Origin: Escherichia phage RB32
DNA: 64,000 nt
Sequence record: NC_008515.1
Reading direction: 5' to 3' (one strand)
Part shown: positions 17,714-39,423 of the stretch, in pieces
Position numbering within the stretch: position 1 is the first letter of the stretch
How the letters are laid out: each line of letters begins with the position of its first letter
Program-made: the position numbers and the translations under genes
The notes under the pieces: generated by a model
Databases searched by the model: none
What the model was told of the DNA's origin: nothing
The model's input: the letters and a program-made list of their open reading frames with translations, nothing else

Positions 17714-17743
17714 ATAGTACCACAGAGGAACAGTCTTGTAAAC
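17714..17743 (-). promoter_or_regulatory. T4-type early promoter (-35 GTTTAC, 18-nt spacer, -10 TACTAT)
   Basis: Minus-strand GTTTACAAGACTGTTCCTCTGTGGTACTATACAACTATCAACT. Confidence 0.6.
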
Positions 17744-17745
17744 CA

Positions 17746-18060
17746 CTAAAAGAAACTTCTTTTACAATTTTTTCCACTGAACCATGCGCTCACTGCTTTC
17801 TTAGTCTCAGGAGCAGTGTTATCCATAAACCATTCAAAGGCAGCCTTTTTATGATTCTGGAGGGCTTCTCGGGCTTTAATCTGCTCACGGTCTATTAACA
17901 CTAACATATGAGCCTTTCTTGTCACCAAGGGCTTCTTATGATTTTTTGAATACTCCCAATCATTTGTCCATCGCATCGTTGTTGCGAATTGAAGTACAGC
18001 TTCTTTAATTTTAGTTTCGTAAATTTCACGAGCCTTTGAGTATAACATCATTACCTCCAT
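17746..18060 (-). CDS. Hypothetical protein
   Basis: 104-aa ORF; 3' end abuts the promoter. Confidence 0.5.
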   Translation of the reverse strand: MEVMMLYSKAREIYETKIKEAVLQFATTMRWTNDWEYSKNHKKPLVTRKAHMLVLIDREQIKAREALQNHKKAAFEWFMDNTAPETKKAVSAWFSGKNCKRSFF

Positions 18061-18130
18061 TTACCAGTTTAATTCTAGTCATCTTTTTGATGGCAGTCCA
18101 TATAATCTATTTCTGAACTGCCTTTTTGTC

Positions 18131-18850
18131 TTAGGATTCTTCTAAATGTCTTTTCTGAAAAGTTGATACCATACTACGATACGGTTCATTTGGATATCCG
18201 TGTTTTATAGCTTCCTTTGTAAATTTTCTCCATCCATATTTAGTTTCTTTCCAAAGCTCGAATAATTCATCTTCATACTGCCATATAGTTAAATGAGAAC
18301 GCTTTGCAGCTTTAATTCCATTAATATGCTTTTCTTTTACTGCAGGATTGTTTAGTTTCTTTTTAATAATATTACTAACTTTTCTAACAAAAACTGGGTC
18401 CTTATATCGTTGCGAAGTTTTTATTGAAGTGTTTAATTTAGCTTCCGGCGTGGATGTGACCTCTTTCATCTTTTTCTTCATATGCTGTATATGATTAGGA
18501 TTTTTCCATAAATTTATAGAATGCTTTTTGCATTTTATCCTAGTTTCATCTGCAACCTTTCCTCCTTCACCCCCGTATGACAGGTTAACACAGTTTTTTC
18601 CATATTTCAATTTACCTGCCATGATATATAATATTTCAGCTTGTACCATTTTATCATAATTATCAAAAACTTCTAAAACCGTTTTTGATAATATGTGGTC
18701 ATTTGACACTTTTACACGTTCTATATAATTTCCACTACCAACATACGAATCATTGATGTTATTAGTTATATGTCGACCATAATAGTATTTCTTAATACCT
18801 GTCTTTAAATTTAATATTTCAGTTTTATAGATAGTAAAATATTTTTTCAT
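18131..18850 (-). CDS. GIY-YIG homing endonuclease (seg-like), free-standing
   Basis: 239 aa; YFTIYKTEILNLKTGIKKYYYGRH..YVGSG GIY-YIG motifs; start overlaps upstream gene stop. Confidence 0.8.
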   Translation of the reverse strand: MKKYFTIYKTEILNLKTGIKKYYYGRHITNNINDSYVGSGNYIERVKVSNDHILSKTVLEVFDNYDKMVQAEILYIMAGKLKYGKNCVNLSYGGEGGKVADETRIKCKKHSINLWKNPNHIQHMKKKMKEVTSTPEAKLNTSIKTSQRYKDPVFVRKVSNIIKKKLNNPAVKEKHINGIKAAKRSHLTIWQYEDELFELWKETKYGWRKFTKEAIKHGYPNEPYRSMVSTFQKRHLEES

Positions 18851-19827
18851 TTTAATAATACCGTTTCAGCGATTTCTTCCCAACCGTTTTTGTCGGTCAT
18901 AATAAAGTCAGCAAGATAAAGAGCAGTACGCAGTGAAACATTGCGTAAACGATTAACATTGACTTTCATCCATGATAATGCTTTATAAGTTTCTTCATCA
19001 GAAAGACCGCGCTTTTGCATCATGTCGGTTGAAAGAATAACATCTTCAACCCTGACCATAATTTCTTCATTAGTGTGAACACCCAAATCCAAATAAACCG
19101 AGCGGGACACTAATGCTTGTAAATGTGGAGCAAGTTTAGTACCACGGTCTAATTCGCGGTCAATGTCAACGTTTGTGATAAAAACAATCGTTCCTTTAAA
19201 TTCAAACTCACGCTCAATGCCTTTTTCTTCTAAGTAAGAAGATGCAGTGCTCCAGCAGACTTTACGGGTCTCTCCAGTGTCCAGAGCAGCTTTCAGAAGA
19301 TTAAGAATGTCCATATCAGAGAAAACATCCACATCATCAATCAAAAGGACAGAATTCTCTTCACGATTATTCCAAAGCTGCTCATAAAGACCAATACCAG
19401 AGATTTTACCATTAATGCTTTTATATTCAATGTATCCAATATCATTTGCTTTATTTAAAGCTTTATCTAAAGAATATGTTTTACCTATACCTGCCGCACC
19501 AGAGATAATTAATGAACGAATGTTTCCGTTAATAATACCATTCGTCATCATTCCCATAACATTAAATCTTTTATTAATGCGGGTTTTCATATCTTCATAT
19601 GATTCTTTAACTTCTTCAACTTTTACACCATCATATGAAATGTCTGATTTGTAAACCCAAACACCGCGACGCTTACCGTCAATTTCAACAAAAACTTTAC
19701 CATCTCCTTGTGCATCTACCGGAGCATTATCTGGGAACCATTCACCTAAGAGCTCAAAAGTTCCAGAGATTTCTTTACCAAAGTAGATACCCTTATTGAT
19801 AGTTACAGTTTTCATTTTATTCTCCAA
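18847..19827 (-). CDS. P-loop NTPase (AAA-like ATPase) with N-terminal extra domain
   Basis: 326 aa; Walker A ISGAAGIGKTYS, Walker B VLLIDDVD, candidate sensor FITN. Confidence 0.8.
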   Translation of the reverse strand: MENKMKTVTINKGIYFGKEISGTFELLGEWFPDNAPVDAQGDGKVFVEIDGKRRGVWVYKSDISYDGVKVEEVKESYEDMKTRINKRFNVMGMMTNGIINGNIRSLIISGAAGIGKTYSLDKALNKANDIGYIEYKSINGKISGIGLYEQLWNNREENSVLLIDDVDVFSDMDILNLLKAALDTGETRKVCWSTASSYLEEKGIEREFEFKGTIVFITNVDIDRELDRGTKLAPHLQALVSRSVYLDLGVHTNEEIMVRVEDVILSTDMMQKRGLSDEETYKALSWMKVNVNRLRNVSLRTALYLADFIMTDKNGWEEIAETVLLK

Positions 19828-19849
19828 ATCCGTATCAGTTGATAGTTGT

Positions 19850-19879
19850 ATAGTACCATAAAGCTTTATGCTTGTAAAC
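19850..19879 (-). promoter_or_regulatory. T4-type early promoter (-35 GTTTAC, 18-nt spacer, -10 TACTAT)
   Basis: Minus-strand GTTTACAAGCATAAAGCTTTATGGTACTATACAACTATCAACTGATACGG. Confidence 0.6.
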
Positions 19880-19909
19880 CGTTTTGTGAAAAATTTTTGA
19901 AATAAAAAA

Positions 19910-19927
19910 GGGAGCCCGAAGGCTCCC
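19910..19927 (-). terminator. Stem-loop terminator (UUCG tetraloop) followed by U-run
   Basis: GGGAGCC-CGAA-GGCTCCC; transcript continues UUUUUUAUUUC. Confidence 0.7.
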
Positions 19928-19929
19928 TA

Positions 19930-20943
19930 TCATTTATAATAACTTCGGTGGTTTTCAAGATAGACCTTCTCAAGGAAGTCATCCCAGAAACCCATGTCTA
20001 CTTTTTGCTGCATACCGTTCTTAGAAGCTTCAGTAGATGCTGCTTCTACTTGATCGACCACATCTTCCAAAAACTCTTGAACTGTTTTAAATGGATGTTT
20101 ACCCAACTTCACGTCGAGAATAAATGGAGCATCTTGGAGTGGATAAACCAAGTCACCAGTTTTGTAAATTTCCAATAGTTGAAGTCCACCACGACAAGCA
20201 TGACTCAGAGCTTTCCAGTCAATGCCTTCATTGGCTTCGGCCTTACGAGCGCGTTCACCATATTCAGCATCTAATTTGTTCAGTGACTGCTTAAGCTCAA
20301 TAAGAGAAAGAGTTGTCTGATATTTACGACCCAACACAGTGTAGAACGTTTGTGGGCCTGTTTTCTCATGATTATGGAACACCCATTCACAGAATTCGTT
20401 TTCTGGAAGACGATGCTTAATATCTTCAACTTTAGTACGACGCTGCTTAATGGAACCGTCTTCTTGGTAATCAACCCATTGCTCAGGGATTTGATTAACT
20501 ACTTTCAATACATCGCGTAATGCAGCCAAACGAGAACCCTTGACGCCATATTTAGAAGCTTGCTTACGGACATATCCTAAATAGGATTTCATGTTAGTCG
20601 TATAAAAACGAGAACGGTTGTCTTGAATAAACTTCCACACATCAGGCAAATCAGATTTAACCACTAATTCAGGTGGAGTGTGAAGCATATCCAATGCTAC
20701 AGTTTCACCATCTGCTGCTAATTTAAAGAAATATTTAAGACTATATAGTTCATGGTCAATATCATCTTTAGTGTTTTTAGATGATGTGTTGTTGGTATTT
20801 TTACTCATATGCTCTTTAACATTTCCGATAAGAATATCGCGAGCAGGAGGAACAAAAATTTCTTTAAAATCTACATCAGATTCTGGGGTAGAAGTTCCAT
20901 AAAGATGACTACCAAAATAGCTTTTCATTACTGTTTTCATCAT
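19930..20943 (-). CDS. Nucleotidyltransferase-fold protein (Pol-beta superfamily signature)
   Basis: 337 aa; N-terminal YFGSHLYGTSTPESDVDFKEIF fits the GS-x(9-13)-DxD motif; further acidic residues downstream. Confidence 0.7.
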   Translation of the reverse strand: MMKTVMKSYFGSHLYGTSTPESDVDFKEIFVPPARDILIGNVKEHMSKNTNNTSSKNTKDDIDHELYSLKYFFKLAADGETVALDMLHTPPELVVKSDLPDVWKFIQDNRSRFYTTNMKSYLGYVRKQASKYGVKGSRLAALRDVLKVVNQIPEQWVDYQEDGSIKQRRTKVEDIKHRLPENEFCEWVFHNHEKTGPQTFYTVLGRKYQTTLSLIELKQSLNKLDAEYGERARKAEANEGIDWKALSHACRGGLQLLEIYKTGDLVYPLQDAPFILDVKLGKHPFKTVQEFLEDVVDQVEAASTEASKNGMQQKVDMGFWDDFLEKVYLENHRSYYK

Positions 20944-21401
20944 TCAGCCTTATATTCAATAACAGGACATACTTTAGCTTTACGAGCTTTTAAAAATTCA
21001 ACGATAATCGATTTCTTGGGTTGAATAGGAGGTAAACCTTTATACGCCCTATCAATATTTTCTACGTGTAAAGCATAATCCTTTTTCCATTTATAATCTT
21101 TATATTTTTCACGCAAATGTACAGGAATAACAAATGAACCAATAATAAGTAAAACAACCAAAAGCGCAAGTATAAATGCTGATGGAAGCAAAGTCCATAA
21201 ACTACCAAAAATAAGCCAACGCTGTAGGCTTTCTGCACAAATAATTGTTAGCCCTACGAGTATAGCACATCCAAAAATAGAAACGAAAAATGTAGGAATG
21301 GCAATAGACCAAAAATATGCGCATAGTGTCTTAGGTCGTTGCCATTCATCGTTAAACATTTTGAATAATTTATAGTGCCAAGAGTTTTCATTAATAATCA
21401 T
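20940..21401 (-). CDS. Membrane protein (multiple TM helices)
   Basis: 153 aa; YFWSIAIPTFFVSIFGCAILVGLTIICA and LPSAFILALLVVLLIIGSFVIPV segments. Confidence 0.65.
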   Translation of the reverse strand: MIINENSWHYKLFKMFNDEWQRPKTLCAYFWSIAIPTFFVSIFGCAILVGLTIICAESLQRWLIFGSLWTLLPSAFILALLVVLLIIGSFVIPVHLREKYKDYKWKKDYALHVENIDRAYKGLPPIQPKKSIIVEFLKARKAKVCPVIEYKAE

Positions 21402-21403
21402 AA

Positions 21404-21925
21404 TTATCCTTTCATTGAAGGCGTAACGGTTGTTAAATACTTAATCATAGCTTCAGCTTCTGATTTTGATAATGAAATTTCTCCATTGTTTTGACGAATA
21501 GAAATAAAATCCGGATGACGGTCACCACCAGCTTTTAAAACACACATATAAGTATCAGTTTCATCTTCAATATTTGAAATGATTGAAGCAGTTCCACATG
21601 AATGCGGTTTTTGATAAATCAATACAGCTTTTCTTCCGCCATTTGACTGTTCATAGGCTTTTAATACATCAAACAAATCAGTTCTTTTATCAATAGCTAA
21701 AATGTTATTTTCATCTTCAATGTTAAATCCTTCGGATACTTCATAAAGCGTTACCCATAAATCACCGATGTCAATAACAGCATTTACTTTTCCACGGCTT
21801 TCAAGAATATGACAAATTTTCTTGATTTCGTCATAGCTCATTTTAATAATATCATCTCCTTGACTAAGAAAGATGTCATTTTTAAATTCAACGCGAATTA
21901 AACCGCTTCCACTTGAAATAAACAT
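21404..21925 (-). CDS. Hypothetical protein, paralog of 21932..22489
   Basis: 173 aa; C-terminus ISLSKSEAEAMIKYLTTVTPSM resembles ITLNKDEAIALKTYLDSVIPTM in the neighbour. Confidence 0.65.
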   Translation of the reverse strand: MFISSGSGLIRVEFKNDIFLSQGDDIIKMSYDEIKKICHILESRGKVNAVIDIGDLWVTLYEVSEGFNIEDENNILAIDKRTDLFDVLKAYEQSNGGRKAVLIYQKPHSCGTASIISNIEDETDTYMCVLKAGGDRHPDFISIRQNNGEISLSKSEAEAMIKYLTTVTPSMKG

Positions 21926-21931
21926 ATTTCC

Positions 21932-22489
21932 TCACTTTGAAATCATAGTTGGAATGACAGAATCAAGATAAGTCTTTAGTGCAATAGCTTCGTCTTTGTT
22001 TAATGTAATGATATGTGATCGAAAATCGTCAATTTGACGAATAGATACTACATCTCCCTCTTCATAGCATTTTGAAACATTTAAAATAGTTTCATCATTC
22101 TGATTACAGGAGTTAGTAATAATAGCATTACAATTTTTGAGCCATTTTAAACTATGTTTTCTTTCATTAGAATAATAAAAATATTTAATCTTAGCTATAA
22201 AACTATCCCAATGGATAACTGATAAACACATTGACTCACTTTTAATATTAAATCCTGGGCATGAAGAATAAAAATGAATTTTGTGCTCATCATTGATGCT
22301 TACTATTTTATCAGTATAAGGATATTCAATTTGGGTTAAATGAATGATTTCACTAGGCGTAAAATATAGCATATCGTCTTCTTGCGTCAAACGATACATG
22401 TTATTTACTTTTTCTATAGCCAATTCACCAAAAAGCGGACTAACTTCTAATACTAATCGTTTCATATTGATTCTCTTCGACTCACTCAC
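21932..22489 (-). CDS. Hypothetical protein, paralog of 21404..21925
   Basis: 185 aa; shared C-terminal motif with the neighbour. Confidence 0.65.
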   Translation of the reverse strand: MSESKRINMKRLVLEVSPLFGELAIEKVNNMYRLTQEDDMLYFTPSEIIHLTQIEYPYTDKIVSINDEHKIHFYSSCPGFNIKSESMCLSVIHWDSFIAKIKYFYYSNERKHSLKWLKNCNAIITNSCNQNDETILNVSKCYEEGDVVSIRQIDDFRSHIITLNKDEAIALKTYLDSVIPTMISK

Positions 22490-22624
22490 AATTACATACT
22501 CCTTTGAATAATATCAATAATGTTGTTCACCAGATTATAAGTAAACATTGGGTAATTATATTGAATCATTACATACACAACAAACAAAACTTTCATTCTC
22601 TTCTCCTTGACAGTTGACAAGATT

Positions 22625-22654
22625 ACTATACCATAACCTTGCCAACTTGTAAAC
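22625..22654 (-). promoter_or_regulatory. T4-type early promoter (-35 GTTTAC, 18-nt spacer, -10 TATAGT)
   Basis: Minus-strand GTTTACAAGTTGGCAAGGTTATGGTATAGTAATC. Confidence 0.55.
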
Positions 22655-22656
22655 CG

Positions 22657-22830
22657 TTAAATGTTGTTTTCAATAAAATTTTGAAGCTTTGTGTGAGCAT
22701 CAACCATGATTTTCATTTCTTCTTTGGCGAAAGCTGTACCTCTTTCCCGAGCAGAATACTCATAGTCAGAAACTGCATTAGCATATTCTTCAATTAGCTT
22801 CATTAAAAACATCTGCTTTTCAGTTTTCAT
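22657..22830 (-). CDS. Hypothetical small protein, 57 aa
   Basis: Own translation MKTEKQMFLMKLIEEYANAVSDYEYSARERGTAFAKEEMKIMVDAHTKLQNFIENNI. Confidence 0.4.
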   Translation of the reverse strand: MKTEKQMFLMKLIEEYANAVSDYEYSARERGTAFAKEEMKIMVDAHTKLQNFIENNI

Positions 22831-23014
22831 TATTCCACCTAATCATTTCAAGATATTGAACTAACTTAGCTTTAGATTTATCCAAATCCCTTTTAGCTGA
22901 TTCTATACCATCGTATGAATATCCTTCACAATGCTCAACTGCTAATTGGTATGAATCTATTTCAATATCATGCGCTAATTTAATGATTTTTTCAAACTGT
23001 TCGCGTGTTAGCAT
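22820..23014 (-). CDS. Hypothetical small acidic protein
   Basis: 64-aa ORF; similar start (MLTREQFEKII) to the 25031..25219 ORF (MITREQKNEILF). Confidence 0.5.
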   Translation of the reverse strand: MLTREQFEKIIKLAHDIEIDSYQLAVEHCEGYSYDGIESAKRDLDKSKAKLVQYLEMIRWNNEN

Positions 23015-23016
23015 AA

Positions 23017-23256
23017 TTAAACTCTCGTATTATGATCGATAATTTCATCAAGAAACATATCTAACGCTTCTAAAGCATTATCAACTTTAGCTTCAAGTTC
23101 ATCAATGCCTTTATTTGCAATGCCTGACGAAAACCAAGCAAAGTCACTAAGTTCCTCGTCTGCTTTACGAATTAAAGCTACCAATTCCTTAATTTTATCC
23201 GCTTGTTCGATACTAATCATTATTCCACCACATATGAAAGAGAGAATATTGCACAC
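23017..23256 (-). CDS. Hypothetical small protein
   Basis: 79-aa ORF. Confidence 0.5.
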
Positions 23257-23453
23257 GCCATGTGAGTTGCAACTTCATCACACATATTATAACGTTTCTT
23301 AAGAAGTTCTACAAGTTCTTCACTAGTAACTTCATCCATGTCGACGAAAAAATCACCATTAATGATGACGTAGATATTTCCTTCTTGATTAAGTGCTTCA
23401 ATTTTCATGATGTTCTCCTCTTTATCCGATGGTTGTATAGTATCACAGCTCAA
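23220..23453 (-). CDS. Hypothetical small acidic protein
   Basis: 77-aa ORF just downstream of an early promoter. Confidence 0.5.
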
Positions 23454-23466
23454 ATGGAAAGTAAAC
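23437..23466 (-). promoter_or_regulatory. T4-type early promoter (-35 GTTTAC, 18-nt spacer, -10 TACTAT)
   Basis: Minus-strand GTTTACTTTCCATTTGAGCTGTGATACTATACAACC. Confidence 0.6.
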
Positions 23467-23481
23467 CGTTTAAATGAAAAA

Positions 23482-23499
23482 AGTCTCCCGAAGGAGACT
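23482..23499 (-). terminator. Stem-loop terminator (UUCG tetraloop) followed by U-run
   Basis: AGTCTCC-CGAA-GGAGACT. Confidence 0.7.
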
Positions 23500-23503
23500 A
23501 ACG

Positions 23504-23890
23504 TTATTCGAGGGAAAGAAGATATTTACTCTGGTAAAACATTCCAGTAATATCATCTATCGTGCTTTGAATGGCTGGAGGCATTTCTTTGTAAATGCTG
23601 TTAGATTGGTCTAGTATGCGATCAATCATTTTAATTGTGTCGGTAGGAAGTTTACTGGCATCTGGAATTGAAGGTGTGTATTTTCTACCAGAATACCCCA
23701 AATATTGCTCACCAAATTTATCAATCAAATCTGGCAACTCGGAGAAAATAAAATCGTATGCTTTGTGTCTAGCATAATTTTTAGTTTCAAAATGTGCAGA
23801 ATGAAAATAAGCTTGTGCAGCCATTAATAAACCTAAGTATTCATCTGCCTTTGAAGGTTTTCCACTTTGTGAAAAGTCGCTGAATTTCAT
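23504..23890 (-). CDS. Hypothetical protein immediately downstream of rI (T4 rI.-1 position)
   Basis: 128-aa ORF; start overlaps rI stop. Confidence 0.65.
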
Positions 23891-24180
23891 TCAGTCTCCA
23901 ATTTAATGTTCATAATTCTAGCGTATGATTGTGCCATCTCCGCGCCTCGCTCTATACATTCAAAATCAGAAGAGCACGGGTCATTTTTATAGGTCGTTCT
24001 CATAAAACTATAGAATTGTTCAGACGATTCTACGCTTTTATTTTCAAAAAGTGTATAAACGTGCCTAATACCAGATTCCATAAATTTATCAAAATGAGGA
24101 TCGACATTCGCTTCAATCGATGGAGATAAAACAAATGACAATCCTAGCATGGCAAAAAGTGCCGTTGCTTTTAAGGCCAT
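23887..24180 (-). CDS. rI: Lysis-inhibition regulator rI (periplasmic antiholin)
   Basis: 97 aa; MALKATALFAMLGLSFVLSPSIEANVDPHF..; near-identical to T4 RI as recalled. Confidence 0.9.
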   Translation of the reverse strand: MALKATALFAMLGLSFVLSPSIEANVDPHFDKFMESGIRHVYTLFENKSVESSEQFYSFMRTTYKNDPCSSDFECIERGAEMAQSYARIMNIKLETE

Positions 24181-24192
24181 AAAGGCCTCCTA

Positions 24193-24405
24193 TCATTTTT
24201 GTCCTGTATTTACTTTATGCCGGTGCACGGCCTTAACTTTATCAAGGTATTTTTCAAAATTTCGCAATCTAGTATAGTCTGCCGGAGATTGGTTGAGCGA
24301 TACTTCTCGACGCAAAGCTGAAATGATATTTCCAACTTCCCTACGAATTTCATCTAATTGAAGCACAGTAAGATTGCGAAGTTGCTTTTCAGTTAATTGT
24401 AGCAT
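24193..24405 (-). CDS. Hypothetical small protein (T4 rI.1 position)
   Basis: 70-aa ORF between rI and tk. Confidence 0.6.
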
Positions 24406-30004: not shown

Positions 30005-30478
30005 TTATTTGAATGATTTAACGTACTGAATAGAACCTTTACTATTCACGAAAGCGATTTTACCATTTTTATTATACATTGTAGCAGTACGTTGATAGCC
30101 ATAAGTTTGTTTACCAGATTGATAACCAACTAATGCGAAATTATCTTCACCCATTTTATTCTGTTTAGCGCGAATACGTTCATGACCATGTGCCATAAGA
30201 ACCTTAGCATCACCGGTTGCAATGGATCGACGAGTTTTTTCATCTTCAACTGTATTAACAAAGTCGTCAAATGAATCAAATTTAGCATGAGATTTATTAT
30301 ACAGTTTTCCATCTACTGCATAATTATATCCCTGTACATCCATCTCAACTTCTGTACCATCATCCAGTACAGCAGTGATTTTCTGTCCTTTTTTAAATTT
30401 CAAAAGATCAGTAAAAGATTCAGCAATAATTTGAGAATTAATAGCTGCTTCAGTAATAAATTCTTGATATGTTTTCAT
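30005..30478 (-). CDS. Internal head protein (IP family) with capsid-targeting N-terminus
   Basis: 157 aa; starts MKTYQEFITEAA, the T4 IP capsid-targeting sequence with the protease-type site after Glu; own early promoter upstream. Confidence 0.75.
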   Translation of the reverse strand: MKTYQEFITEAAINSQIIAESFTDLLKFKKGQKITAVLDDGTEVEMDVQGYNYAVDGKLYNKSHAKFDSFDDFVNTVEDEKTRRSIATGDAKVLMAHGHERIRAKQNKMGEDNFALVGYQSGKQTYGYQRTATMYNKNGKIAFVNSKGSIQYVKSFK

Positions 30479-30538
30479 GTGTATCCTTTAAATGTAAATA
30501 TTTTAATTAATAATTTATCTCTTCAAGTAACTGTGAAT

Positions 30539-30572: not shown

Positions 30573-31545
<973 letters not shown>

Positions 31546-31611
31546 TTTAATTTCCTACAATCACTCACAAACTCTTTCATTGATTCATTTTCAATATAAG
31601 ACATGTAGCTA

Positions 31612-32859: not shown

Positions 32860-32880
32860 TCCTATTTACTCCAAGTAATA

Positions 32881-32896
32881 GGGGCCGAAGCCCCTT
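32881..32896 (-). terminator. Stem-loop terminator (UUCG tetraloop)
   Basis: AGGGGC-CGAA-GCCCCT. Confidence 0.6.
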
Positions 32897-32900
32897 ATCA

Positions 32901-33494
32901 TTATTTCAGAGAATTAATATATTCCTGAACATCGGCAGAGGTAGTTTCAACCCCAGAAATATTGCCATTAAAGGTTTCAACTCGAGCAAGAGTATCTTCA
33001 ATATCAACCTTAGTCAGTGCTGCAATTTCAACTACATCATCGGCAGTACTAATTCCAAGTGCATTCGCTGCTCGAGTTTCACGGATATATTCCAATTTAA
33101 CTGCAAGTTCTTGGCGAGCATCATCCAATTCAACTACTTTCTTGGCGATTTCAATTCGCATTTCAGCATACCCATCAGCTTTAGTAGTTAACTGTTCAGC
33201 TGTTCGACGATATAGCAAGCCGAGTTTAGCATGCATTGTTACATCTTGACCTTCGGAAAGAAGCTTGCGAATTTCACGCTCTTTTGATTCGGCCTGCTTA
33301 TTCTTTTCGACAATAAGTTCACGAATACGCTTTTCTTCATTAATAGATTTAACAGAAGCAGTTTTTAGATCTTTAATTTTATCAAGCAATTTTGCTGCTG
33401 CGGCAGTATACTGCTCTTCAACAGATAGATTTTTAGCCATAGCAGAACCAAGTTTAGTGCGAATAAACTCAACAATTTTCTTCAGTGTGTTCAT
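32901..33494 (-). CDS. All-helical coiled-coil protein (PspA/IM30-like architecture, speculative)
   Basis: 197 aa rich in Ala/Glu/Lys/Arg heptad-like repeats; no catalytic motif seen. Confidence 0.6.
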
Positions 33495-33537
33495 AGTATT
33501 TCCTTAGGTTGATTAGAAATTAAAATCTGCAGAAGAA

Positions 33538-34071
33538 TTATATCATGCTACTTAAGAGATGTAAACTATTTTTAATTTTACAAATTCGTTCAGCTTCTTC
33601 AACAGCGGCAGTGATAATGCTTTTAGCTATAGGAGTACTAATATTAGTAGCTTTTACACTTAACACGATTTCTTTATCTTTACCAGGCCAACCCCACGAT
33701 TTTTCACCATGAGTGCCTTTAATTACAGCAGACACCTCAAGTGAGCATCCATTATCGCATGTTTTTACATTAACAACCCAAGTGTCACTTTTCTCAACCG
33801 GTTTATCCCAGTAAATATTAAGAATACGTGGGACATCAAATTTAGCAGGGCAAATCTTAACCGTAAGACCTTCGCTTTCTAGCCAATTAATAAGAGGGCG
33901 TTCATACATGCGGCGATGTGGGCTTTGAACTCGACAAGCTTTGTACCCATTGCTTGCGGCTTCACTAAGCTCTTCTAATACATGCTTTTGCATTATTGAT
34001 AAGATACCATCAAAAGATTTTTCGGAAGTTTCATTCAGTTCGGTATAAAGAGACATAACAGTTTTCCTCAA
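33538..34071 (-). CDS. Hypothetical protein
   Basis: 177-aa ORF. Confidence 0.6.
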   Translation of the reverse strand: MRKTVMSLYTELNETSEKSFDGILSIMQKHVLEELSEAASNGYKACRVQSPHRRMYERPLINWLESEGLTVKICPAKFDVPRILNIYWDKPVEKSDTWVVNVKTCDNGCSLEVSAVIKGTHGEKSWGWPGKDKEIVLSVKATNISTPIAKSIITAAVEEAERICKIKNSLHLLSSMI

Positions 34072-34112
34072 ATTATAGGCTCATAATATCTCAATCATGA
34101 GCCTATGTAAAC

Positions 34113-34388
34113 TTATTTCATATTATTGAAATATTCTTCTGCGATTTCGTCGTTATCATGGTAAACTTTAGAAGACAGTTTAACATAACCTTCAGCAGTG
34201 AACATGTTAATCACAACCTTTACAGTATACCACTGACCATCTTCATTACCCATTACTGCGTAAGTTTCAAACATCGGATGATCAGGACCGATAACTTTAA
34301 TATCATTCACTGTACGACCGAAATCTTCTGAAACACATTTCATAAAGAAGTTGAACAGTTCGCCGTAATTATCCATTTCATTCTCCAA
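34113..34388 (-). CDS. Hypothetical small acidic protein
   Basis: 91-aa ORF immediately downstream of an early promoter. Confidence 0.6.
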   Translation of the reverse strand: MENEMDNYGELFNFFMKCVSEDFGRTVNDIKVIGPDHPMFETYAVMGNEDGQWYTVKVVINMFTAEGYVKLSSKVYHDNDEIAEEYFNNMK

Positions 34389-34419
34389 ATTGTTTTCTGT
34401 ATCAGTAGTTGATAGTTGT

Positions 34420-34449
34420 ATAGTACCATGGAAGAACAGGGATGTAAAC
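34420..34449 (-). promoter_or_regulatory. T4-type early promoter (-35 GTTTAC, 18-nt spacer, -10 TACTAT)
   Basis: Minus-strand GTTTACATCCCTGTTCTTCCATGGTACTATACAACTATCAACTACTGATAC. Confidence 0.6.
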
Positions 34450-34586
34450 AGTTTTGTGAAAAAATTTTTAAAAAGTTTTATGGAATTCTAGGGTCAGGAG
34501 GGACAATTAAAAGGTAGGATAATATATTATAAAGGGTATAAACTAAATGATGCCTAGAGAGACAAGGAAAGGCCTAGATACCAAAA

Positions 34587-34610
34587 AGCCCCAACCTTTC
34601 GGCTGGGGCT
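34587..34610 (-). terminator. Stem-loop terminator downstream of an IP gene; near-identical copy at 35142..35165
   Basis: AGCCCCA(a)CC-TTTC-GG(c)TGGGGCT hairpin. Confidence 0.55.
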
Positions 34611-34617
34611 AAGAATG

Positions 34618-35091
34618 TTATTTGATTTGTTTAGCAGACCAAATGCGGTCTTTAATAATTTTTTGGATGTCTTCAACATACTCAAGAGAGTGAGCATGTG
34701 GGTTATCTTTGAAACTATAAGCACGAGCTAACTTTTGACCTTCAGTTTTGATTACTAAAAGCTCTTTAAGGATAGCTTCATATCTGGAGATAATTCCTTT
34801 AACGATATTTTTCTCTTGTGTGACTTTAGGATCTGCTTTAGGAGCAGGTTTACCTGAAGCCTTTGCAAAAGCAGCTCCAGTAGCAACTAAACTTTTCCAA
34901 GCCATACTAACTGCATTCCCTGTAAATCCTTCGGCTTTCATATCACGAGCAAATTGGAATCGTGATTCATCGGAAGCATCTTTATAGGAATATTTACCCG
35001 CGGCAATGGCTGCTTTTGCGACAGCTTGAATTTCGGTGCTAGATGCTTCATTTAACACCGCTTCATTTAAAAATTGAGCATATGATTTCAT
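34618..35091 (-). CDS. Internal head protein (IP family) with capsid-targeting N-terminus
   Basis: 157 aa; starts MKSYAQFLNEAV; Ala/Lys-rich; flanked by repeated terminator hairpins. Confidence 0.7.
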   Translation of the reverse strand: MKSYAQFLNEAVLNEASSTEIQAVAKAAIAAGKYSYKDASDESRFQFARDMKAEGFTGNAVSMAWKSLVATGAAFAKASGKPAPKADPKVTQEKNIVKGIISRYEAILKELLVIKTEGQKLARAYSFKDNPHAHSLEYVEDIQKIIKDRIWSAKQIK

Positions 35092-35141
35092 CTTATTTCC
35101 TGTTTTAATTCGGGGTTTTAATATACTTATTTATACTAAAA

Positions 35142-35165
35142 AGCCCCAACCTTTCGGTCGGGGCT
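35142..35165 (-). terminator. Stem-loop terminator ending the tRNA-Arg/stable-RNA transcript; repeat of 34587..34610
   Basis: AGCCCCAACC-TTTC-GGTCGGGGCT hairpin. Confidence 0.55.
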
Positions 35166-35169
35166 AAGC

Positions 35170-35481
35170 CTTGCGGCAACCTTGTCGGGGTTCCACCTGC
35201 TAAGGCAAGTGTTTGTACGAAACGCCGGGATTCGAACCCGGTTATTAAGCAGTTGACGCTACTCAATATTTTTAAAAGGCCATATCTCGACCATATCCGA
35301 ACGTTCCGTCAAAAACGCTACTCGGCTTACGGCAAAGATATTTCCTCGAATCGATAATTCGGTGCGCCGTTTCTGCTGTGATGTAAGAGGGCATCAACAA
35401 ATCATAAAGATTTATTAACACAATTCCTTACTCAGGGAACATCAGTCCGACGACTTACCGGTAGCGACCCGGTTTCTTGTT
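35170..35481 (-). ncRNA. Non-coding region with a tRNA-like T-arm; candidate small stable RNA(s) as in the T4 tRNA region
   Basis: No credible ORF; CCGGGTTCGAATCCCGG T-arm-like element and flanking stems; bounded by tRNA-Arg and a terminator. Confidence 0.35.
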
Positions 35482-35558
<77 letters not shown>

Positions 35559-35561
35559 TAA

Positions 35562-36227
35562 TTAAAATTTCATTTTTCGACCTTTAAACCATCCTTCTGG
35601 AATTGGGTCAGTTTTCTTAATACGTTTAGAAACTTTTTCATCTAATGAATGAATCCACATCATACCAAATTGGGAATTCTTTTCGCCCTGTTGGTGTTTA
35701 TTTCTGGCGTGAGATTCTTTCATTTTATTAATAGTTTCAGGAGTATGATGCTTATTTAAAAATCTGCTATTATTTAAAAATTTTTCCCTGTATTCAGGAG
35801 TTGACCACAAGCGTTTAAATACATTTGAACCATGTTTACGATATTTTTCTTGAAGTAAAATATCATTTTTAAAACGTGACTTAAACGATTTAGCTCCTTT
35901 TAAACTAGCGTCTTTCTTCTGGTTTAGCATCCTAGGAATATTTATATGGTCCCATCCACCTTCACCACCAAGTTTTAAATTATACACATCTGGTCTATTT
36001 AAAAACTCTTCTGTGACAATATTTTTCTCGGCTTCAAGCATAGATTCTTTATCATCAAAATACTCTAATATTTCTTTAGAAAAATTTTCTATACCATATT
36101 TATCTTGGGCTCTTTTTAATAATTTACCAGAACCCATATATCCATCATCTAAATTTTCGGTAGAATGCACACCAATATAAATTTTATTATTAATTTTATT
36201 TGTTATTTTATAAGTGTAATGGAACAT
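35562..36227 (-). CDS. segB: GIY-YIG homing endonuclease SegB
   Basis: 221 aa; YTYKITNKINNKIYIGVHST..YMGSG GIY-YIG motifs; located inside the tRNA cluster as in T4. Confidence 0.85.
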   Translation of the reverse strand: MFHYTYKITNKINNKIYIGVHSTENLDDGYMGSGKLLKRAQDKYGIENFSKEILEYFDDKESMLEAEKNIVTEEFLNRPDVYNLKLGGEGGWDHINIPRMLNQKKDASLKGAKSFKSRFKNDILLQEKYRKHGSNVFKRLWSTPEYREKFLNNSRFLNKHHTPETINKMKESHARNKHQQGEKNSQFGMMWIHSLDEKVSKRIKKTDPIPEGWFKGRKMKF

Positions 36228-36268
36228 AAATATCTCCTATTTCTAAGAGTATTTATGTTCCCAAAATA

Positions 36269-36340
36269 TGGCCCTGGGTGGAATTGAACCACCATCTGGC
36301 GATTATGAGTCGCTTGCTTGAACCTTCCAGCTACAGGGCC
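36269..36340 (-). tRNA. tRNA-Ile: tRNA with CAU anticodon (Ile2-type or Met)
   Basis: Cloverleaf: acceptor GGCCCTG/CAGGGCC, anticodon loop CTCATAA, T arm GGTGG-TTCAATT-CCACC; T4 carries a CAU tRNA-Ile at this position. Confidence 0.7.
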
Positions 36341-36341
36341 T

Positions 36342-36417
36342 TGGTGCTGATTGACGGAATCGAACCGCCGACCTTCTCATTACAAGTGAGTTGCTCTACC
36401 TACTGAGCTAAATCAGC
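36342..36417 (-). tRNA. tRNA-Thr: tRNA-Thr (anticodon UGU)
   Basis: Acceptor GCTGATT/AATCAGC, D arm GCTC..GAGC, anticodon loop CTTGTAA, encoded ACCA. Confidence 0.8.
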
Positions 36418-36419
36418 AA

Positions 36420-36506
36420 CGGAGGCGATAGGATTTGAACCTATGAGTCGCCGGAGCGACTGCCGGTTTTCAAGACCGGTGCATTAAACCACTCTGCCAC
36501 GCCTCC
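36420..36506 (-). tRNA. tRNA-Ser: tRNA-Ser (anticodon UGA), long variable arm
   Basis: Acceptor GGAGGCG/CGCCTCC, anticodon stem-loop CCGGT-CTTGAAA-ACCGG, long extra arm, T loop TTCAAAT. Confidence 0.8.
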
Positions 36507-36508
36507 AG

Positions 36509-36582
36509 TCTCCATACAAGGATTTGAACCTTGGACCTCCTGATCCCAAATCAGGCGCTCTACCAAACTGAGCTACACGGAG
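36509..36582 (-). tRNA. tRNA-Pro: tRNA-Pro (anticodon UGG)
   Basis: Anticodon stem-loop CCTGA-TTTGGGA-TCAGG, D arm TAGCTCAGTTTGGTAGAGC, T arm CAAGG-TTCAAAT-CCTTG. Confidence 0.8.
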
Positions 36583-36592
36583 TAAATTAAAT

Positions 36593-36666
<74 letters not shown>

Positions 36667-36671
36667 AAATT

Positions 36672-36758
36672 TGGTGCGAGAAGTGGGACTCGAACCCACA
36701 AGGAAATCATTCCGCAGCATTTTAAGTGCTGTGCCTTTACCAATTTGACCATTCTCGC
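36672..36758 (-). tRNA. tRNA-Leu: tRNA-Leu (anticodon UAA), long variable arm
   Basis: Acceptor GCGAGAA/TTCTCGC, anticodon stem-loop CAGCA-CTTAAAA-TGCTG, encoded ACCA. Confidence 0.8.
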
Positions 36759-36759
36759 G

Positions 36760-36832
36760 CTGGGAATAAAGGACTCGAACCTTTGCATCTAGCAGTCAAA
36801 GTGCTATGCCTTACCAACTTGGCTAATTCCCA
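36760..36832 (-). tRNA. tRNA-Gln: tRNA-Gln (anticodon UUG)
   Basis: TGGGAATTAGCCAAGTTGGTAAGGCATAGCACTTTGACTGCTAGATGCAAAGGTTCGAGTCCTTTATTCCCA; matches T4 tRNA-Gln as recalled. Confidence 0.85.
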
Positions 36833-36918
36833 ATTATTAACAAAGGCTCTCAAGCAAGAACCCTTGATGATAGAGGGTATTAATCAGTGCGGTATGAGTT
36901 AATAATAACAAATAATTC

Positions 36919-37434
36919 TTAAAGCAAATTAAACATTTTAACAGTCGGCAAAACAATTTCTTTTTCTATATAAGAGTATTTAACACTCTCAACTACACGC
37001 AGAAAATCATAATCATAATATTCAGAAGCACTGCCTAAAATATTAATAAGTCCTTCAAACACTTTATTACCATTCACAAAGAATAAATCAAATACACGTT
37101 CTTCATCTTCTTCGGATTTATTACCAAGGTCAACTTCTATATCAAAGACCTTTTTAATGAATTCTGGATAAAGTTGGTCTGAGAACAGTCCTTCAACCAA
37201 GTATTCATAAATAAAAAGCGATTGCTCGCTGAACAAGCCATTACCACAATAACGTTCAGCTTTAGTACTAGAATGTCTGCTTTTAAACTTCTTTAAAAGA
37301 TATTGAAATTGTAAGATTTCATGCTCTTCTACGCCAAACAGTGTTTTAGTTTTATAGTTGTCACCATCATTTTCCCAGGTAGTGACATCAATTACGTAAC
37401 CCTGCGGAATTGTAGTACCTAAACAAATATTCAT
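36919..37434 (-). CDS. Hypothetical acidic protein
   Basis: 171-aa ORF upstream of the tRNA cluster. Confidence 0.6.
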   Translation of the reverse strand: MNICLGTTIPQGYVIDVTTWENDGDNYKTKTLFGVEEHEILQFQYLLKKFKSRHSSTKAERYCGNGLFSEQSLFIYEYLVEGLFSDQLYPEFIKKVFDIEVDLGNKSEEDEERVFDLFFVNGNKVFEGLINILGSASEYYDYDFLRVVESVKYSYIEKEIVLPTVKMFNLL

Positions 37435-37727
37435 TTGCTCACCATATTAATGTAAGTATATTCAATACATTCAAGACCCAAAGGATTTTTGAAAATATCA
37501 TATTCAAGAGGACCTTTTTCCGTTTCAATAAAGAAATCAAAATTTACTGTATTAAATTTACGGTCTTCCTTCACTAATTTAACCTGAGAAGATGAACGAT
37601 CAATGTAAACCTTTTCAACCTCAAAACATGTTAAAACACCATAATCATCAATCAAGGCTTTGGCTGCTTCTTGATCATATTTATATCCATTTTCAACGGA
37701 TGATACTTTCGCATAAAGAATCATCAT
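37431..37727 (-). CDS. Hypothetical protein
   Basis: 98-aa ORF, translationally coupled to neighbours. Confidence 0.6.
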   Translation of the reverse strand: MMILYAKVSSVENGYKYDQEAAKALIDDYGVLTCFEVEKVYIDRSSSQVKLVKEDRKFNTVNFDFFIETEKGPLEYDIFKNPLGLECIEYTYINMVSK

Positions 37728-38137
37728 TAACCTCTATCAACAATAGCATGAGTATGGGCATTTACAATTTGCCACCAGTCGAAACGATTAGAACCATATT
37801 CTGGTTTATTTTCATTTTCTTTAATGATATCACGCAGTTTATCTTCTGTTTCAGCATACGCAATTAAATCATCATACCCACCACAAGGATAATAATTATC
37901 ACCTGCGAATAAAAGAAAATTTACCTTAGATGGATTTACGTAATAATGGTCTTTAGGATATTTAGTTCCTCTCCAATCAGTTACTTCAACATAACGGTAA
38001 GAAAATCCATTTTTACTTTCAATCCAACTCCACGCTTCAAAAGGAGTATTAAAAACTCTATCAGGTATTAAATTACCTTCAAAATGAGAAGGATTTGCAT
38101 AATCCCCGGCATAAACATAATATTCGTTAATACTCAT
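37727..38137 (-). CDS. Hypothetical Tyr/Trp-rich protein
   Basis: 136-aa ORF. Confidence 0.6.
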   Translation of the reverse strand: MSINEYYVYAGDYANPSHFEGNLIPDRVFNTPFEAWSWIESKNGFSYRYVEVTDWRGTKYPKDHYYVNPSKVNFLLFAGDNYYPCGGYDDLIAYAETEDKLRDIIKENENKPEYGSNRFDWWQIVNAHTHAIVDRG

Positions 38138-38323
38138 TTATTCACCTTTAGAAATTTTATCCATAACGATAGCAATTAAACCAATTAAAAATGCTACTAC
38201 AAGTGAAAACACATTTTCTGCTGTAGTTAATAATCCGCATATAAATCCAACAAACATTGAAAAACTAAAAGCAGAAGCAGAAATTGCAATAGCAACATTT
38301 CGAATTAATTCACAACGTTTCAT
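38138..38323 (-). CDS. Small membrane protein
   Basis: 61 aa; two hydrophobic helices; early promoter directly upstream. Confidence 0.55.
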   Translation of the reverse strand: MKRCELIRNVAIAISASAFSFSMFVGFICGLLTTAENVFSLVVAFLIGLIAIVMDKISKGE

Positions 38324-38351
38324 TTTATTCTCCTCAGTAGTTGATAGGGTA

Positions 38352-38381
38352 ATAGTATCACTACCCCATCTAAAAGTAAAC
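38352..38381 (-). promoter_or_regulatory. T4-type early promoter (-35 GTTTAC, 18-nt spacer, -10 TACTAT)
   Basis: Minus-strand GTTTACTTTTAGATGGGGTAGTGATACTATTACCCTATCAACTACTGAGGAGAATAAAATG. Confidence 0.6.
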
Positions 38382-38391
38382 GGTTTATAAA

Positions 38392-38700
38392 CTATTTTAT
38401 TCCGCGTGATGCAATTGTGTTCTGCCGTTTAGCACCAGTTTGTTTAAAATCATGATTGTCGATTTGATCGGTACGAGCAACTCCGAATGATGATTTGATT
38501 TTAGCTTTAGATCCTTTAGTTATAGAAATAAACATCTCGGAAGCCCCTTTCTTAAAGTCCGAGGCGATTACTTCAACGCCGTTCTTAGCAAGTGACTTCA
38601 GAATTGCCTCAGCATACTCATCGTCAAGACTCGCCTGAGTATTAATAACGAATGTCTTTGGCGCAGCCGCTTCATTGATAAATTCTTTAAATGTTTTCAT
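38392..38700 (-). CDS. Internal head protein (IP family) with capsid-targeting N-terminus
   Basis: 102 aa; starts MKTFKEFINEAAAP; own promoter. Confidence 0.7.
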   Translation of the reverse strand: MKTFKEFINEAAAPKTFVINTQASLDDEYAEAILKSLAKNGVEVIASDFKKGASEMFISITKGSKAKIKSSFGVARTDQIDNHDFKQTGAKRQNTIASRGIK

Positions 38701-38731
38701 TTTATTTTCCTAATTAATTTTTGATGAGATA

Positions 38732-38761
38732 ATAGTATCACTACCCTATTTAAAAGTAAAC
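38732..38761 (-). promoter_or_regulatory. T4-type early promoter (-35 GTTTAC, 18-nt spacer, -10 TACTAT)
   Basis: Minus-strand GTTTACTTTTAAATAGGGTAGTGATACTATTATCTCATC. Confidence 0.6.
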
Positions 38762-39034
38762 TCATTTTAAATAAATTGCGTATTTTTTATAACCCGCTGA
38801 CTCATGACGAAGACCCTTATCATTAGCAAAACGCTCAATGTTGTTAATTTGATTCTGATCAAGTTCAGAGATGTCAAACACGAAAAAGTTACGTTTGTTA
38901 CCAACTGTTATATAGTCAGTTAAATCAATATCATATAGGTAATTGATGTCAGCAATCAAAGTCTTGACAGCTTTGCTAATTTTTACTTTTTCGTTAAAAG
39001 CAGCTTCAGAAATAAATTCTTGATACGTTTTCAT
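38762..39034 (-). CDS. Internal head protein (IP family) with capsid-targeting N-terminus
   Basis: 90 aa; starts MKTYQEFISEAAF; own promoter. Confidence 0.7.
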   Translation of the reverse strand: MKTYQEFISEAAFNEKVKISKAVKTLIADINYLYDIDLTDYITVGNKRNFFVFDISELDQNQINNIERFANDKGLRHESAGYKKYAIYLK

Positions 39035-39062
39035 TTTATTCTCCTCAGTAGTTGATAGGGTA

Positions 39063-39092
39063 ATAGTATCACAGCTAAAACCCTATGTAAAC
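39063..39092 (-). promoter_or_regulatory. T4-type early promoter (-35 GTTTAC, 18-nt spacer, -10 TACTAT)
   Basis: Minus-strand GTTTACATAGGGTTTTAGCTGTGATACTATTACCCTATCAACTACTGAGGAG. Confidence 0.6.
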
Positions 39093-39104
39093 AACTTTGT
39101 GAAA

Positions 39105-39362
39105 TTACTTTAAATCTTCTAATCGTTTCTTCATCTTAGAACCATTTTTAGCGATTTCTCCTGCATCGGAGCATAATGCTAAAAGCGCTTTAACTTTAGT
39201 TTGGTCTCCTTTAAAAGATGAAGGATCGACTGCAGCAGCAAGTTCTTTAATACGAGAGAAAAGACGCTCAGCTTCAGCTAAAGCCATTCCAAGCTTTACT
39301 TCCATACCGTGGGAAGATTCAGTGATAGTAGTTTTTGTAGCAAACTCTTTGAAAGTTTTCAT
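39105..39362 (-). CDS. Internal head protein (IP family) with capsid-targeting-like N-terminus
   Basis: 85 aa; starts MKTFKEFATKTTITE; own promoter. Confidence 0.65.
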   Translation of the reverse strand: MKTFKEFATKTTITESSHGMEVKLGMALAEAERLFSRIKELAAAVDPSSFKGDQTKVKALLALCSDAGEIAKNGSKMKKRLEDLK

Positions 39363-39393
39363 TTTATTTTCCTAATTAATTTTGATGAGGTAA

Positions 39394-39423
39394 TAGTATC
39401 ACTACCTCATCAGCATGTAAACA
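39394..39423 (-). promoter_or_regulatory. T4-type early promoter (-35 GTTTAC, 18-nt spacer, -10 TACTAT)
   Basis: Minus-strand GTTTACATGCTGATGAGGTAGTGATACTATTACCTCATC. Confidence 0.6.

Follow-up and report, generated by a model that had tools for sequence, protein, structure and literature searches.

Why does the early region of a T4-like phage carry the same short blocks of DNA in front of so many of its genes, and have these blocks helped to move the genes about? The question is raised by a stretch of 64,000 nucleotides from Escherichia phage RB32 (NC_008515.1; hereafter the window), in which a first-pass annotation had marked dispersed early promoters on the minus strand between positions 17714 and 39423. 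Genes were named and placed after the record of Enterobacteria phage RB33 (KM607001.1; Tequatrovirus, species RB32), which matches window positions 17000-40000 at 100% (window coordinate = KM607001.1 coordinate minus 32119); about 450 other T4-like genomes match the same positions at 95-99%. The range 17714-39423 extends from nrdC.8 to Ip5 within the variable early region on the minus strand, and beyond Ip5 follow genes 57B, 57A, 1, 3, 2 and 4 and then the baseplate genes. Our answer, to which we give a probability of roughly 0.78, is that the repeats are T4-type early promoters with their leaders, that sub-blocks have been copied between these modules, and that recombination among the modules shuffles cassettes reaching from leader to leader; promoter activity is predicted here, and recombination is the proposed cause. 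The anatomy of the modules, their module-specific hairpins, the many breakpoints within them, the exact repeats around one cassette and the sharing of that cassette across lineages can all be read directly from the DNA.

The pattern GTTTAC-N17-19-TANNAT occurs 17 times in the window against 0.94 expected, a count reached in none of 100 shuffles. Sixteen of these matches are on the minus strand, all with a spacer of exactly N18 and all within 6708-39422, the nrdC-tk-e-tRNA-internal protein (IP) region. Twelve, labelled P5 to P16, lie in 17714-39423 (17714 to 39422), and the other four, P1 to P4 (6708-14766), start at 6708, 7153, 11456 and 14737. The first-pass figure of at least 14 minus-strand promoters is thus right for the window and too high for the range to which it was assigned. 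Between 39423 and 64000, where the tail and baseplate genes lie, no minus-strand GTTTAC-N18-TAnnAT match was found. A generic sigma-70 scan gave no surplus of promoter-like sites (94 vs 84.7 expected), so only the T4-specific pattern is informative.

A repeat search that made no use of the motif led to the same elements, the promoter modules being the largest direct-repeat families of the 64-kb window. Both repeat groups of the first-pass annotation were recovered. The leader group reported at 17714, 19850 and 34420 corresponds to copies of CATGGTACTATACAACTATCAACT at 17701 (2 mismatches), 19837 (1) and 34407 (0), and the group at 38352, 38732, 39063 and 39394 to copies of GTGATACTATTACC at 38348, 38728 (1 mismatch), 39059 and 39389. 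The description of the modules as near-identical applies to sub-blocks: P13 (38352) and P15 (39063) share 44 exact nucleotides from the -10 region through the fourth codon, and the leader A group ACAACTATCAACT (P5, P6 and P12) is alike at 22-24 of 24 nucleotides. Whole modules (55-78 nt) are mosaics with 60-81% identity, to which the description does not extend.

Each module is ordered in the same way, with an AT-rich upstream region, GTTTAC, a spacer ending in TGn, TAnnAT, a leader of 26-60 nt with a GGAG-type Shine-Dalgarno (SD) sequence, and ATG. The column consensus at the -10 of the 16 minus-strand matches is tGTGaTAcTAT. With a -35 of GTTTAC(A/T), a -10 of TAnnAT preceded by TGn and a 17-nt spacing of the hexamers, the modules have the sequence features of T4-type early promoters. 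The T4 record examined lists neither promoters nor terminators, and a DksA/T4 transcriptome paper says nothing of these promoters. The 30 nt upstream of the -35 have a mean AT content of 0.73, against 0.65 (sd 0.09) in random 30-mers, and an A or T tract of at least 4 is found upstream in 11 of the 16. In the annotated stretch, P5-P16 (n=12) all occupy gene junctions of 43-241 nt and are followed by the SD and ATG. Three leader types recur: leader A, common to P5, P6 and P12 and less good in P7; leader B, common to P13 and P15; and leader C, common to P14 and P16. An upstream element, AATTTCACAAAGTT, is common to P15, P16 and P2. At Ip4, Ip9, Ip7 and Ip5 the repeat (DNA repeat family D1) runs on through the first ~10 codons, giving the N-termini MKTYQEF (Ip4 and Ip9) and MKTFKEF (Ip7 and Ip5) to proteins that are otherwise unrelated; according to the literature, the shared N-terminus is the capsid-targeting signal of internal proteins.

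Signs of exchange were found at the IP locus that spans P13 to P16 on the minus strand. P16 (39330..39447), upstream of Ip5, combines the upstream element AATTTCACAAAGTT with a 9-bp hairpin, GATGAGGTA / TACCTCATC, around the -10 box. P15 (39002..39117), upstream of Ip9, has the same upstream element and leader B and forms the upper edge of an Ip9-Ip7 cassette; P14 (38668..38786), upstream of Ip7, lies within this cassette; and P13 (38321..38406), upstream of tRNA.4, forms its lower edge with leader B and a hairpin, GATGGGGTA / TACCCTATC, around the -10. Capsid-targeting codons follow P14, P15 and P16. The Ip9-Ip7 pair sits exactly between the two 44-nt leader B copies of P15 and P13. It is missing exactly between these repeats in T4, AR1, RB51, PD112, JEP6 and wV7, and the phages without it show an overlap of 44-47 nt at the junction. 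Such a direct repeat would be an obvious substrate for mini-circle recombination. Phages carry one to three IP genes at this locus, the number of modules always being that of the IP genes plus one; RB33, with three at this second IP locus, has the most among the phages compared. T4, KAW1E185 and JEP6 have ipI in place of the body of Ip5, the exchange starting where the targeting codons end (39328).

P14 itself looks like a recombinant promoter. Its core (38732-38761) joins a spacer of the P13/P15 type (ATAGGGTA) to a leader of the P16 type (TATCTCATCAAAA). The hairpin that encloses the -10 in both parental types is broken in P14, and its own duplex (-2.7 kcal/mol) is the worst of 14 cross-pairs.

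Cassettes and modules are also shared across lineages. In contig 3300045988_118042 the block 39120-38298, which runs from the upstream edge of P15 through Ip9, P14 and Ip7 to the P13 leader, is 92.4% identical to that of RB33 over 828 nt, whereas the core genes 1, 57A and 57B of the contig have 65-75% identity; in another contig (170,341 bp) the Ip9-Ip7 block stands at 84.9% vs 67% for the flanks. That these high-identity patches end at modules is what cassette transfer predicts. A single module shows a similar pattern: a P6-type module is 94% identical over 100 nt (L065:9633-9732 vs 19814-19912), while the flanking nrdC.11 and nrdC.10 are at 68-74%. In that relative the module, with its terminator tail, promoter and leader, precedes an extra open reading frame (ORF), and the identity reflects either very strong constraint on the 100 nt or a recent exchange of the module.

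Three further hot spots are bounded by modules. P6 (19813..19928, minus strand, upstream of nrdC.10) consists of a terminator (19909-19928), a T-rich region, GTTTAC..TACTAT, leader ACAACTATCAACT and ATG. At this nrdC.11|nrdC.10 junction the relatives carry five distinct insertions, 275-722 bp long, whose entry points lie within the leader (19809-19839), and in PD112, JEP6 and one contig the inserted ORFs lie between two module copies. nrdC.11 is a nucleotidyltransferase (Pfam RlaP, above cutoff) and nrdC.10 gives weak AAA-type matches. Neither gene is variable, since every relative compared has both; the hot spot is their junction only. The first-pass view that modules stand at the boundaries of variable genes therefore holds for the IP genes, which are variable cassettes, and not for this ATPase/nucleotidyltransferase pair.

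At the Ip4 locus, P9 (30447..30593, minus) comprises the promoter, a 60-nt leader, ATG and the ~10 capsid-targeting codons (MKTYQEF...) of repeat family D1. Some breakpoints fall within the leader (30488-30514), where RB51, wV7 and phiD1 carry an inserted denV. Others fall where the targeting codons end (30441-30447); directly after these codons the Ip4 body is swapped for denV-ipII-ipIII in T4 and for another IP in JEP6. The e.7 locus is framed by P11 (34054..34137, minus, upstream of the variable gene RB33_132), which has a 10-bp hairpin, ATAGGCTCAT..ATGAGCCTAT, around the -10 box, and by P10 (33492..33591, minus, upstream of e.6). Its five alleles are RB33_132, e.7, RB14ncORF134c, one other and an empty site that has a single module, and the breakpoints lie just after the P11 hairpin or just 5' of the -35. 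The promoter part of P10 goes along with the upstream variable gene, every allele carries its own e.6 promoter, and homology among phages resumes at the e.6 SD (AACCTAAGGAAATACTATG); the exchanged unit thus runs from leader to leader.

Gene-content differences were then counted over the annotated stretch 14881-41381 in 24 relatives, comprising 12 complete Tequatrovirus genomes (T4, IME537, AR1, RB51, RB14, KAW1E185, PD112, JEP6, wV7, SfPhi01, phiD1 and OE5505) and 12 fragments of close metagenomic contigs. A search of a viral contig collection with regB as anchor gave 11 loci, few of them close; an annotated phage collection and two further anchors were used as well. A breakpoint was scored where at least 40 bp remained unaligned on either side in collinear blastn chains. 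The survey yielded 51 distinct events. Modules make up 6.8% of the stretch and contain 44 of the 102 breakpoint ends (6.9 expected); of the 51 events, 24 end in a module on one side or more, 20 of these on both sides. Three or more alleles were found far more often at promoter junctions (8/12) than at the others (3/54; p=1e-5).

Several results weigh against a causal role of the modules. The multi-allele statistic reflects about five non-independent hot spots and not 12 separate sites, and breakpoints taken from blastn alignment ends are accurate to ~10-20 nt. Promoter junctions were not enriched for carrying any event (8/12 vs 24/54, p=0.14), nor were they when only junctions with a gap of at least 40 nt were compared (8/12 promoter vs 7/12 other), so viable insertions and deletions may simply need roomy intergenic DNA. 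In the 24 relatives no breakpoint was seen at four of the 12 modules: P5 (nrdC.8), P7 (mobD.5), P8 (regB) and P14 (Ip7). The empty e.8|e.6 site retains P11 with a remnant -10 of P10, a junction out of register between the modules and thus no clean homologous crossover. Finally, the leader motif CCTATCAAC is family-wide in other genera, so a shared leader is not only a trace of recent movement.

All but the first of these points suit the alternative that constraint and selection are sufficient: modules would resemble each other through shared promoter, SD and targeting needs, only self-promoted insertions in roomy intergenic DNA would survive, and the modules would not promote recombination. 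It gains further from the extended early-promoter consensus described in review (PMC2988021), and, given the gap-controlled result, selection for viable self-expressed insertions could produce much of the breakpoint coincidence. As a complete account we consider it unlikely. The 44-nt exact identity of P13 and P15 goes beyond consensus and stands at both ends of Ip9-Ip7, with an overlap of matching length in phages that lack the cassette; P14 is a chimera whose hairpin is broken; the 92% patch in a 65-75% background ends at modules; and, as described below, terminator hairpins and gene start regions also flank insertions and deletions, which points to homology-driven events generally.

Recombination among modules, which we favour, accounts for a limited part of the variable loci. 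About 17 were counted, of which four are bounded by promoter modules (24/51 alleles), one by a repeated terminator hairpin, and at least three involve homing endonucleases; plain indels at gene boundaries and divergent patches make up the remainder. The cassette-shuffling pattern proposed in the first-pass annotation is accordingly present at the IP loci, the e.7 locus and the nrdC.10/nrdC.11 junction, and is confined to these ~4 of ~17. The comparison with relatives that it had suggested as a check supports it in the share of breakpoint ends within modules and in the multi-allelic junctions, and gives it no support in the tests for any event or in those restricted to long gaps. Its further idea that a module marks a recent acquisition did not hold up: nrdC.8, mobD.5, regB and e.8 carry modules yet are present in every relative compared, and P5, P7 and P8 have no breakpoint. 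The proposition that all indels are promoter-mediated was also rejected, since no module borders tk.1, RB33_112/113, RB33_136, a 441-bp insertion at 22477 or the endonuclease loci.

The terminator-bounded locus is that of RB33_134, which is flanked on the minus strand by two copies of a GC-rich intrinsic terminator hairpin (34578..34613 and 35133..35168), a 36-nt direct repeat (family D14, 92%). The gene is absent from T4, which keeps one hairpin copy (35-nt overlap), and other inserts occur at the same hairpin in other relatives; judged by these flanks, RB33_134 is a terminator-bounded and not a promoter-bounded cassette. At another locus, e.2 is missing in RB33 alone among the phages compared. 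The deletion junction (31542-31571) falls within a repeated start region (TGATTGyAGGAAAtTAAAATGA) that precedes both e.2 and nudE in T4, and the nudE start region is also similar to the IP leaders. Since short repeats such as the RB33_134 terminator hairpin (34-36 nt) and the e.2 start regions also flank indels, a homology-hungry general recombination may use any dispersed repeat, the promoter modules being the commonest and longest.

Other variable loci involve endonuclease genes. RB33, IME537, AR1 (in a shorter form), RB51, RB14 and SfPhi01 have a seg-like endonuclease gene between nrdC.9 and nrdC.10 (18131-18850) that 13 other relatives lack; the gene has clean ends, which bear no relation to promoter modules. 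The tRNA/segB region (35478-36830) is a second kind of multi-allelic hot spot, with differing tRNA sets, segB or segD-like genes and, in many relatives, an extra ORF after rnaD; no early-promoter modules were found at its breakpoints. Genes 3 and 2 are separated by an ORF of 224 aa that has an HNH-like motif (41532-42206; weak Pfam HNH matches, below cutoff). None of the 12 complete relatives has this 668-bp insertion, which probably codes for a homing endonuclease.

It could be argued that such endonucleases, by cutting related genomes and co-converting the flanks, and not the promoters, lie behind the differences in gene content. The absence of the seg-like gene from 13 relatives, the presence of mobD in T4 where RB33 has RB33_098/099, the many alleles of the segB/tRNA region, an extra endonuclease at 36761-36826 in four relatives and the HNH-like ORF found only in RB33 all fit this explanation. 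We nevertheless regard it as improbable. Homing endonucleases account for other loci, yet none of the four module-bounded hot spots (the P6 site, Ip4, the e.7 locus and Ip7/Ip9/Ip5) has an annotated endonuclease gene in RB33 or the relatives inspected, and endonuclease insertions do not end at promoter modules.

The modules carry a second feature, a hairpin. In about half of them the spacer between -35 and -10 is complementary to the module's own leader, placing the -10 box in a loop. Pairing of a spacer with its own leader averages -9.6 kcal/mol over the 16 RB33 modules, compared with -6.3 kcal/mol for cross-pairs with unrelated leaders, and none of 5000 permutations was as strong. The own duplex beats every cross-pair at P5, P8, P9, P11, P13 and P16; weaker hairpins are present at P2, P7 and P15, and no stem-loop was found at P10, P12 or P14. 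P5 (17683..17768, minus, upstream of nrdC.8; GTTTAC-N18-TACTAT, leader ACAACTATCAACT..GGAGG, ATG) pairs its spacer with the SD (TGTTCCTC / GGAGGAACA; -20.8 kcal/mol). In P8 (27796..27880, minus, upstream of regB) the spacer pairs with leader and SD (TTTTCCTCTTGACTG / CAGTTAAGAGGAGAA; -22.3 kcal/mol). P6 and P7 have clear intrinsic terminators directly upstream, the latter module (23406..23499, minus, upstream of mobD.5) consisting of a terminator (23482-23499), the promoter and leader ACAACCATCGG. The excess of own duplexes persisted (z=-14) in a set of 146 non-redundant modules drawn from T4-like loci in several genera, with 27% of the modules beyond the 5% tail of cross-pairs.

These hairpins are not intrinsic terminators by their sequence: a T-rich tail follows only 2 of the 40 strong -10-enclosing hairpins, and that candidate role was rejected, although the upstream hairpins of P6 and P7 do resemble terminators. 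Because the 5' arm lies upstream of the start site, the helix can form only in read-through RNA. We tentatively propose, at somewhat less than even odds, that the stem-loop serves chiefly to insulate at the RNA level rather than as a signal for recombination. In read-through RNA the spacer would pair with the leader, often including the SD, and would mask translation and the GGAG site of RegB, or would provide a protective 3' hairpin for the upstream message; transcripts from the module's own promoter would lack the 5' arm and stay open. The module-specific complementarity agrees with this proposal, as do the 16 of 40 strong duplexes that cover the SD and the paucity of T-rich tails. At the regB promoter the spacer:SD helix is kept through compensatory differences in three lineages (TTGACTG/CAGTTAA, TAGTTG/CAACTA and TGTAAG/CTTACA), and RNAalifold gave 12 pairs, two with double changes. 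A strong hairpin is found in 1 of the 24 modules that have a terminator upstream and in 39 of the 122 that have none (p=0.005). The T4 genes e, soc, 49 and I-TevI are established examples of this logic, and structure is known to shield GGAG from RegB (PMC3014915). Against it, more than half of the strong hairpins stop short of the SD, the published reading is that of a terminator or attenuator, with a reporter test on one RB49 element (PMC2839356), and the 146-module set is not fully independent phylogenetically and was scored with a crude terminator detector.

An insulating role of some kind, whether by masking of the SD and RegB site or by 3'-end protection of the upstream message, is plausible. 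We hold more loosely the fuller claim that the -10-enclosing hairpin is maintained by compensatory evolution, that the downstream gene would be expressed and RegB-controlled only from its own promoter, and that a module carries either this device or an upstream terminator, rarely both. If true, it would extend the logic of a promoter within an SD-masking hairpin, known for the late promoters of four T4 genes, to a large fraction of the early genes in T4-like genera, and would explain how cassettes can be shuffled without disturbing their neighbours. As it stands, the covarying, nearly terminator-exclusive hairpin is a modest extra result and a lead on how cassettes are insulated from upstream transcription.

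The remaining matches add less. P12 (34374..34474, minus, upstream of e.8; leader ACAACTATCAACTACTGA) is kept in all relatives. P4 (14700..14791, minus, upstream of nrdC.4) lies outside the range, and in one relative that lacks nrdC.4 the deletion ends within its leader; P2 (7120..7207, minus), also outside, carries the upstream element AATTTTCGCAAAGTT as in P15 and P16. P1 (6708-6737) and P3 (11456-11485) are doubtful as modules. Both are without a hairpin, and the DNA upstream of P3 (11485) is GC-rich, with an AT content of 0.43. As similar sequences are found in distant genera at what seem to be corresponding places, the two may represent conserved internal promoters rather than chance matches. 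The lone plus-strand match (26696, N19) is probably due to chance and also doubtful as a module.

Shuffling among modules could proceed as follows. The copies would be alike because all keep to one functional consensus, set by host RNA polymerase, the ribosome and prohead targeting, and because sub-blocks have been copied from module to module; many would bear an extra device, either an upstream intrinsic terminator or a spacer-leader hairpin with the -10 in its loop. As the most abundant dispersed 20-50-nt homology in the variable region, they would allow the phage recombination system to exchange, insert or delete a gene together with the next gene's promoter, which would create a small number of multi-allelic hot spots, chiefly at the two internal-protein loci. 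Such loci are of practical interest: three internal proteins are specific inhibitors of GmrSD-type restriction enzymes, and the modules offer a good guide to swapped anti-defence genes in T4-like genomes. Promoter modules do not, however, bound most of the variable loci here, and a module alone is no sign of recent acquisition.

How far do these elements correspond to known systems? T4 early promoters match strongly all sigma-70 and alpha C-terminal domain elements (UP, -35, TGn and -10) and have further consensus regions (Hinton 2010, PMC2988021). This consensus explains most of the 30-nt core shared by the RB33 modules; it leaves unexplained the 44-nt exact identities, the mosaic leaders and upstream elements and the module-specific hairpins. 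The hairpins resemble, in the geometry of P5, P8 and many modules in other genera, those of T4 genes e, soc, 49 and I-TevI, where the promoter lies inside a hairpin with the SD in its 3' arm, so that the SD is hidden in long transcripts and accessible in those begun at the internal promoter (Uzan and Miller 2010, PMC3014915). The T4 cases concern late promoters, temporal control and four genes, whereas those described here concern early promoters and are widespread, with a predicted effect on translation. Integron cassettes and phage morons are likewise small self-contained units of accessory genes added or removed at defined intergenic sites; in RB33 there is no dedicated integrase or attC, the promoter goes with the cassette, and short homology and the general recombination system seem to be used.

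The closest precedents are the promoter/stem-loop cassettes of T4-type phages, whose role in gene shuffling, invoked in the first-pass annotation, is indeed published (PMC2839356, PMC4122927); its interpretation thus restates this literature. Arbiol 2010 (PMC2839356) defined the PeSL as an early promoter with a stem-loop, mostly between -35 and -10 or over the -10. In RB49 and phi1 these elements are concentrated in hyperplastic regions beside insertions, deletions and replacements, with crossovers between the -10 and ATG, and mini-circles were shown for both phages. The RB33 modules are alike as composite intergenic elements with an AT-rich region, early promoter, stem-loop, SD and start codon in a hyperplastic location. 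They fall outside the strict RB49/phi1 definition in -35, -10 and stem type, having GTTTAC, mostly TACTAT or TATAAT and weaker, AT-richer, variable stems where RB49 and phi1 have a near-perfect TTGACA-N17-TATAAT and G/C-tract stems; Arbiol et al. regard the T-even elements as analogues, not homologues, of the RB49 PeSLs. Comeau, Arbiol and Krisch 2014 (PMC4122927) extended PeSLs to the T4/PST pair with the consensus TTTACW-N17-TAYWAT. There the genus, the promoter consensus, the hyperplastic regions beside differential ORFs and the IP genes among the differences are the same as here; the PST stem-loops lie just upstream of the promoter (AGNA-loop-TCNT), whereas RB33 has this upstream kind at P6 and P7 and, more frequently, the spacer-leader hairpin around the -10. 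As summarised by Arbiol et al. (PMC2839356), Repoila 1994 had seen PeSL-like sequences, built on T4 early promoters and with weaker AT-rich stem-loops, at the two IP loci that vary strongly among T-even phages; going by the later summaries (PMC2839356, PMC4122927), the Ip4 and Ip7/Ip9/Ip5 loci of RB33 are those two loci. RB33 thus adds little beyond the published picture: one more T-even phage, and a quantitative test in which early-promoter cassettes bound the most polymorphic accessory loci. Early-promoter cassettes at T-even swapping loci are already known, and the RB33 elements fit the T-even version.

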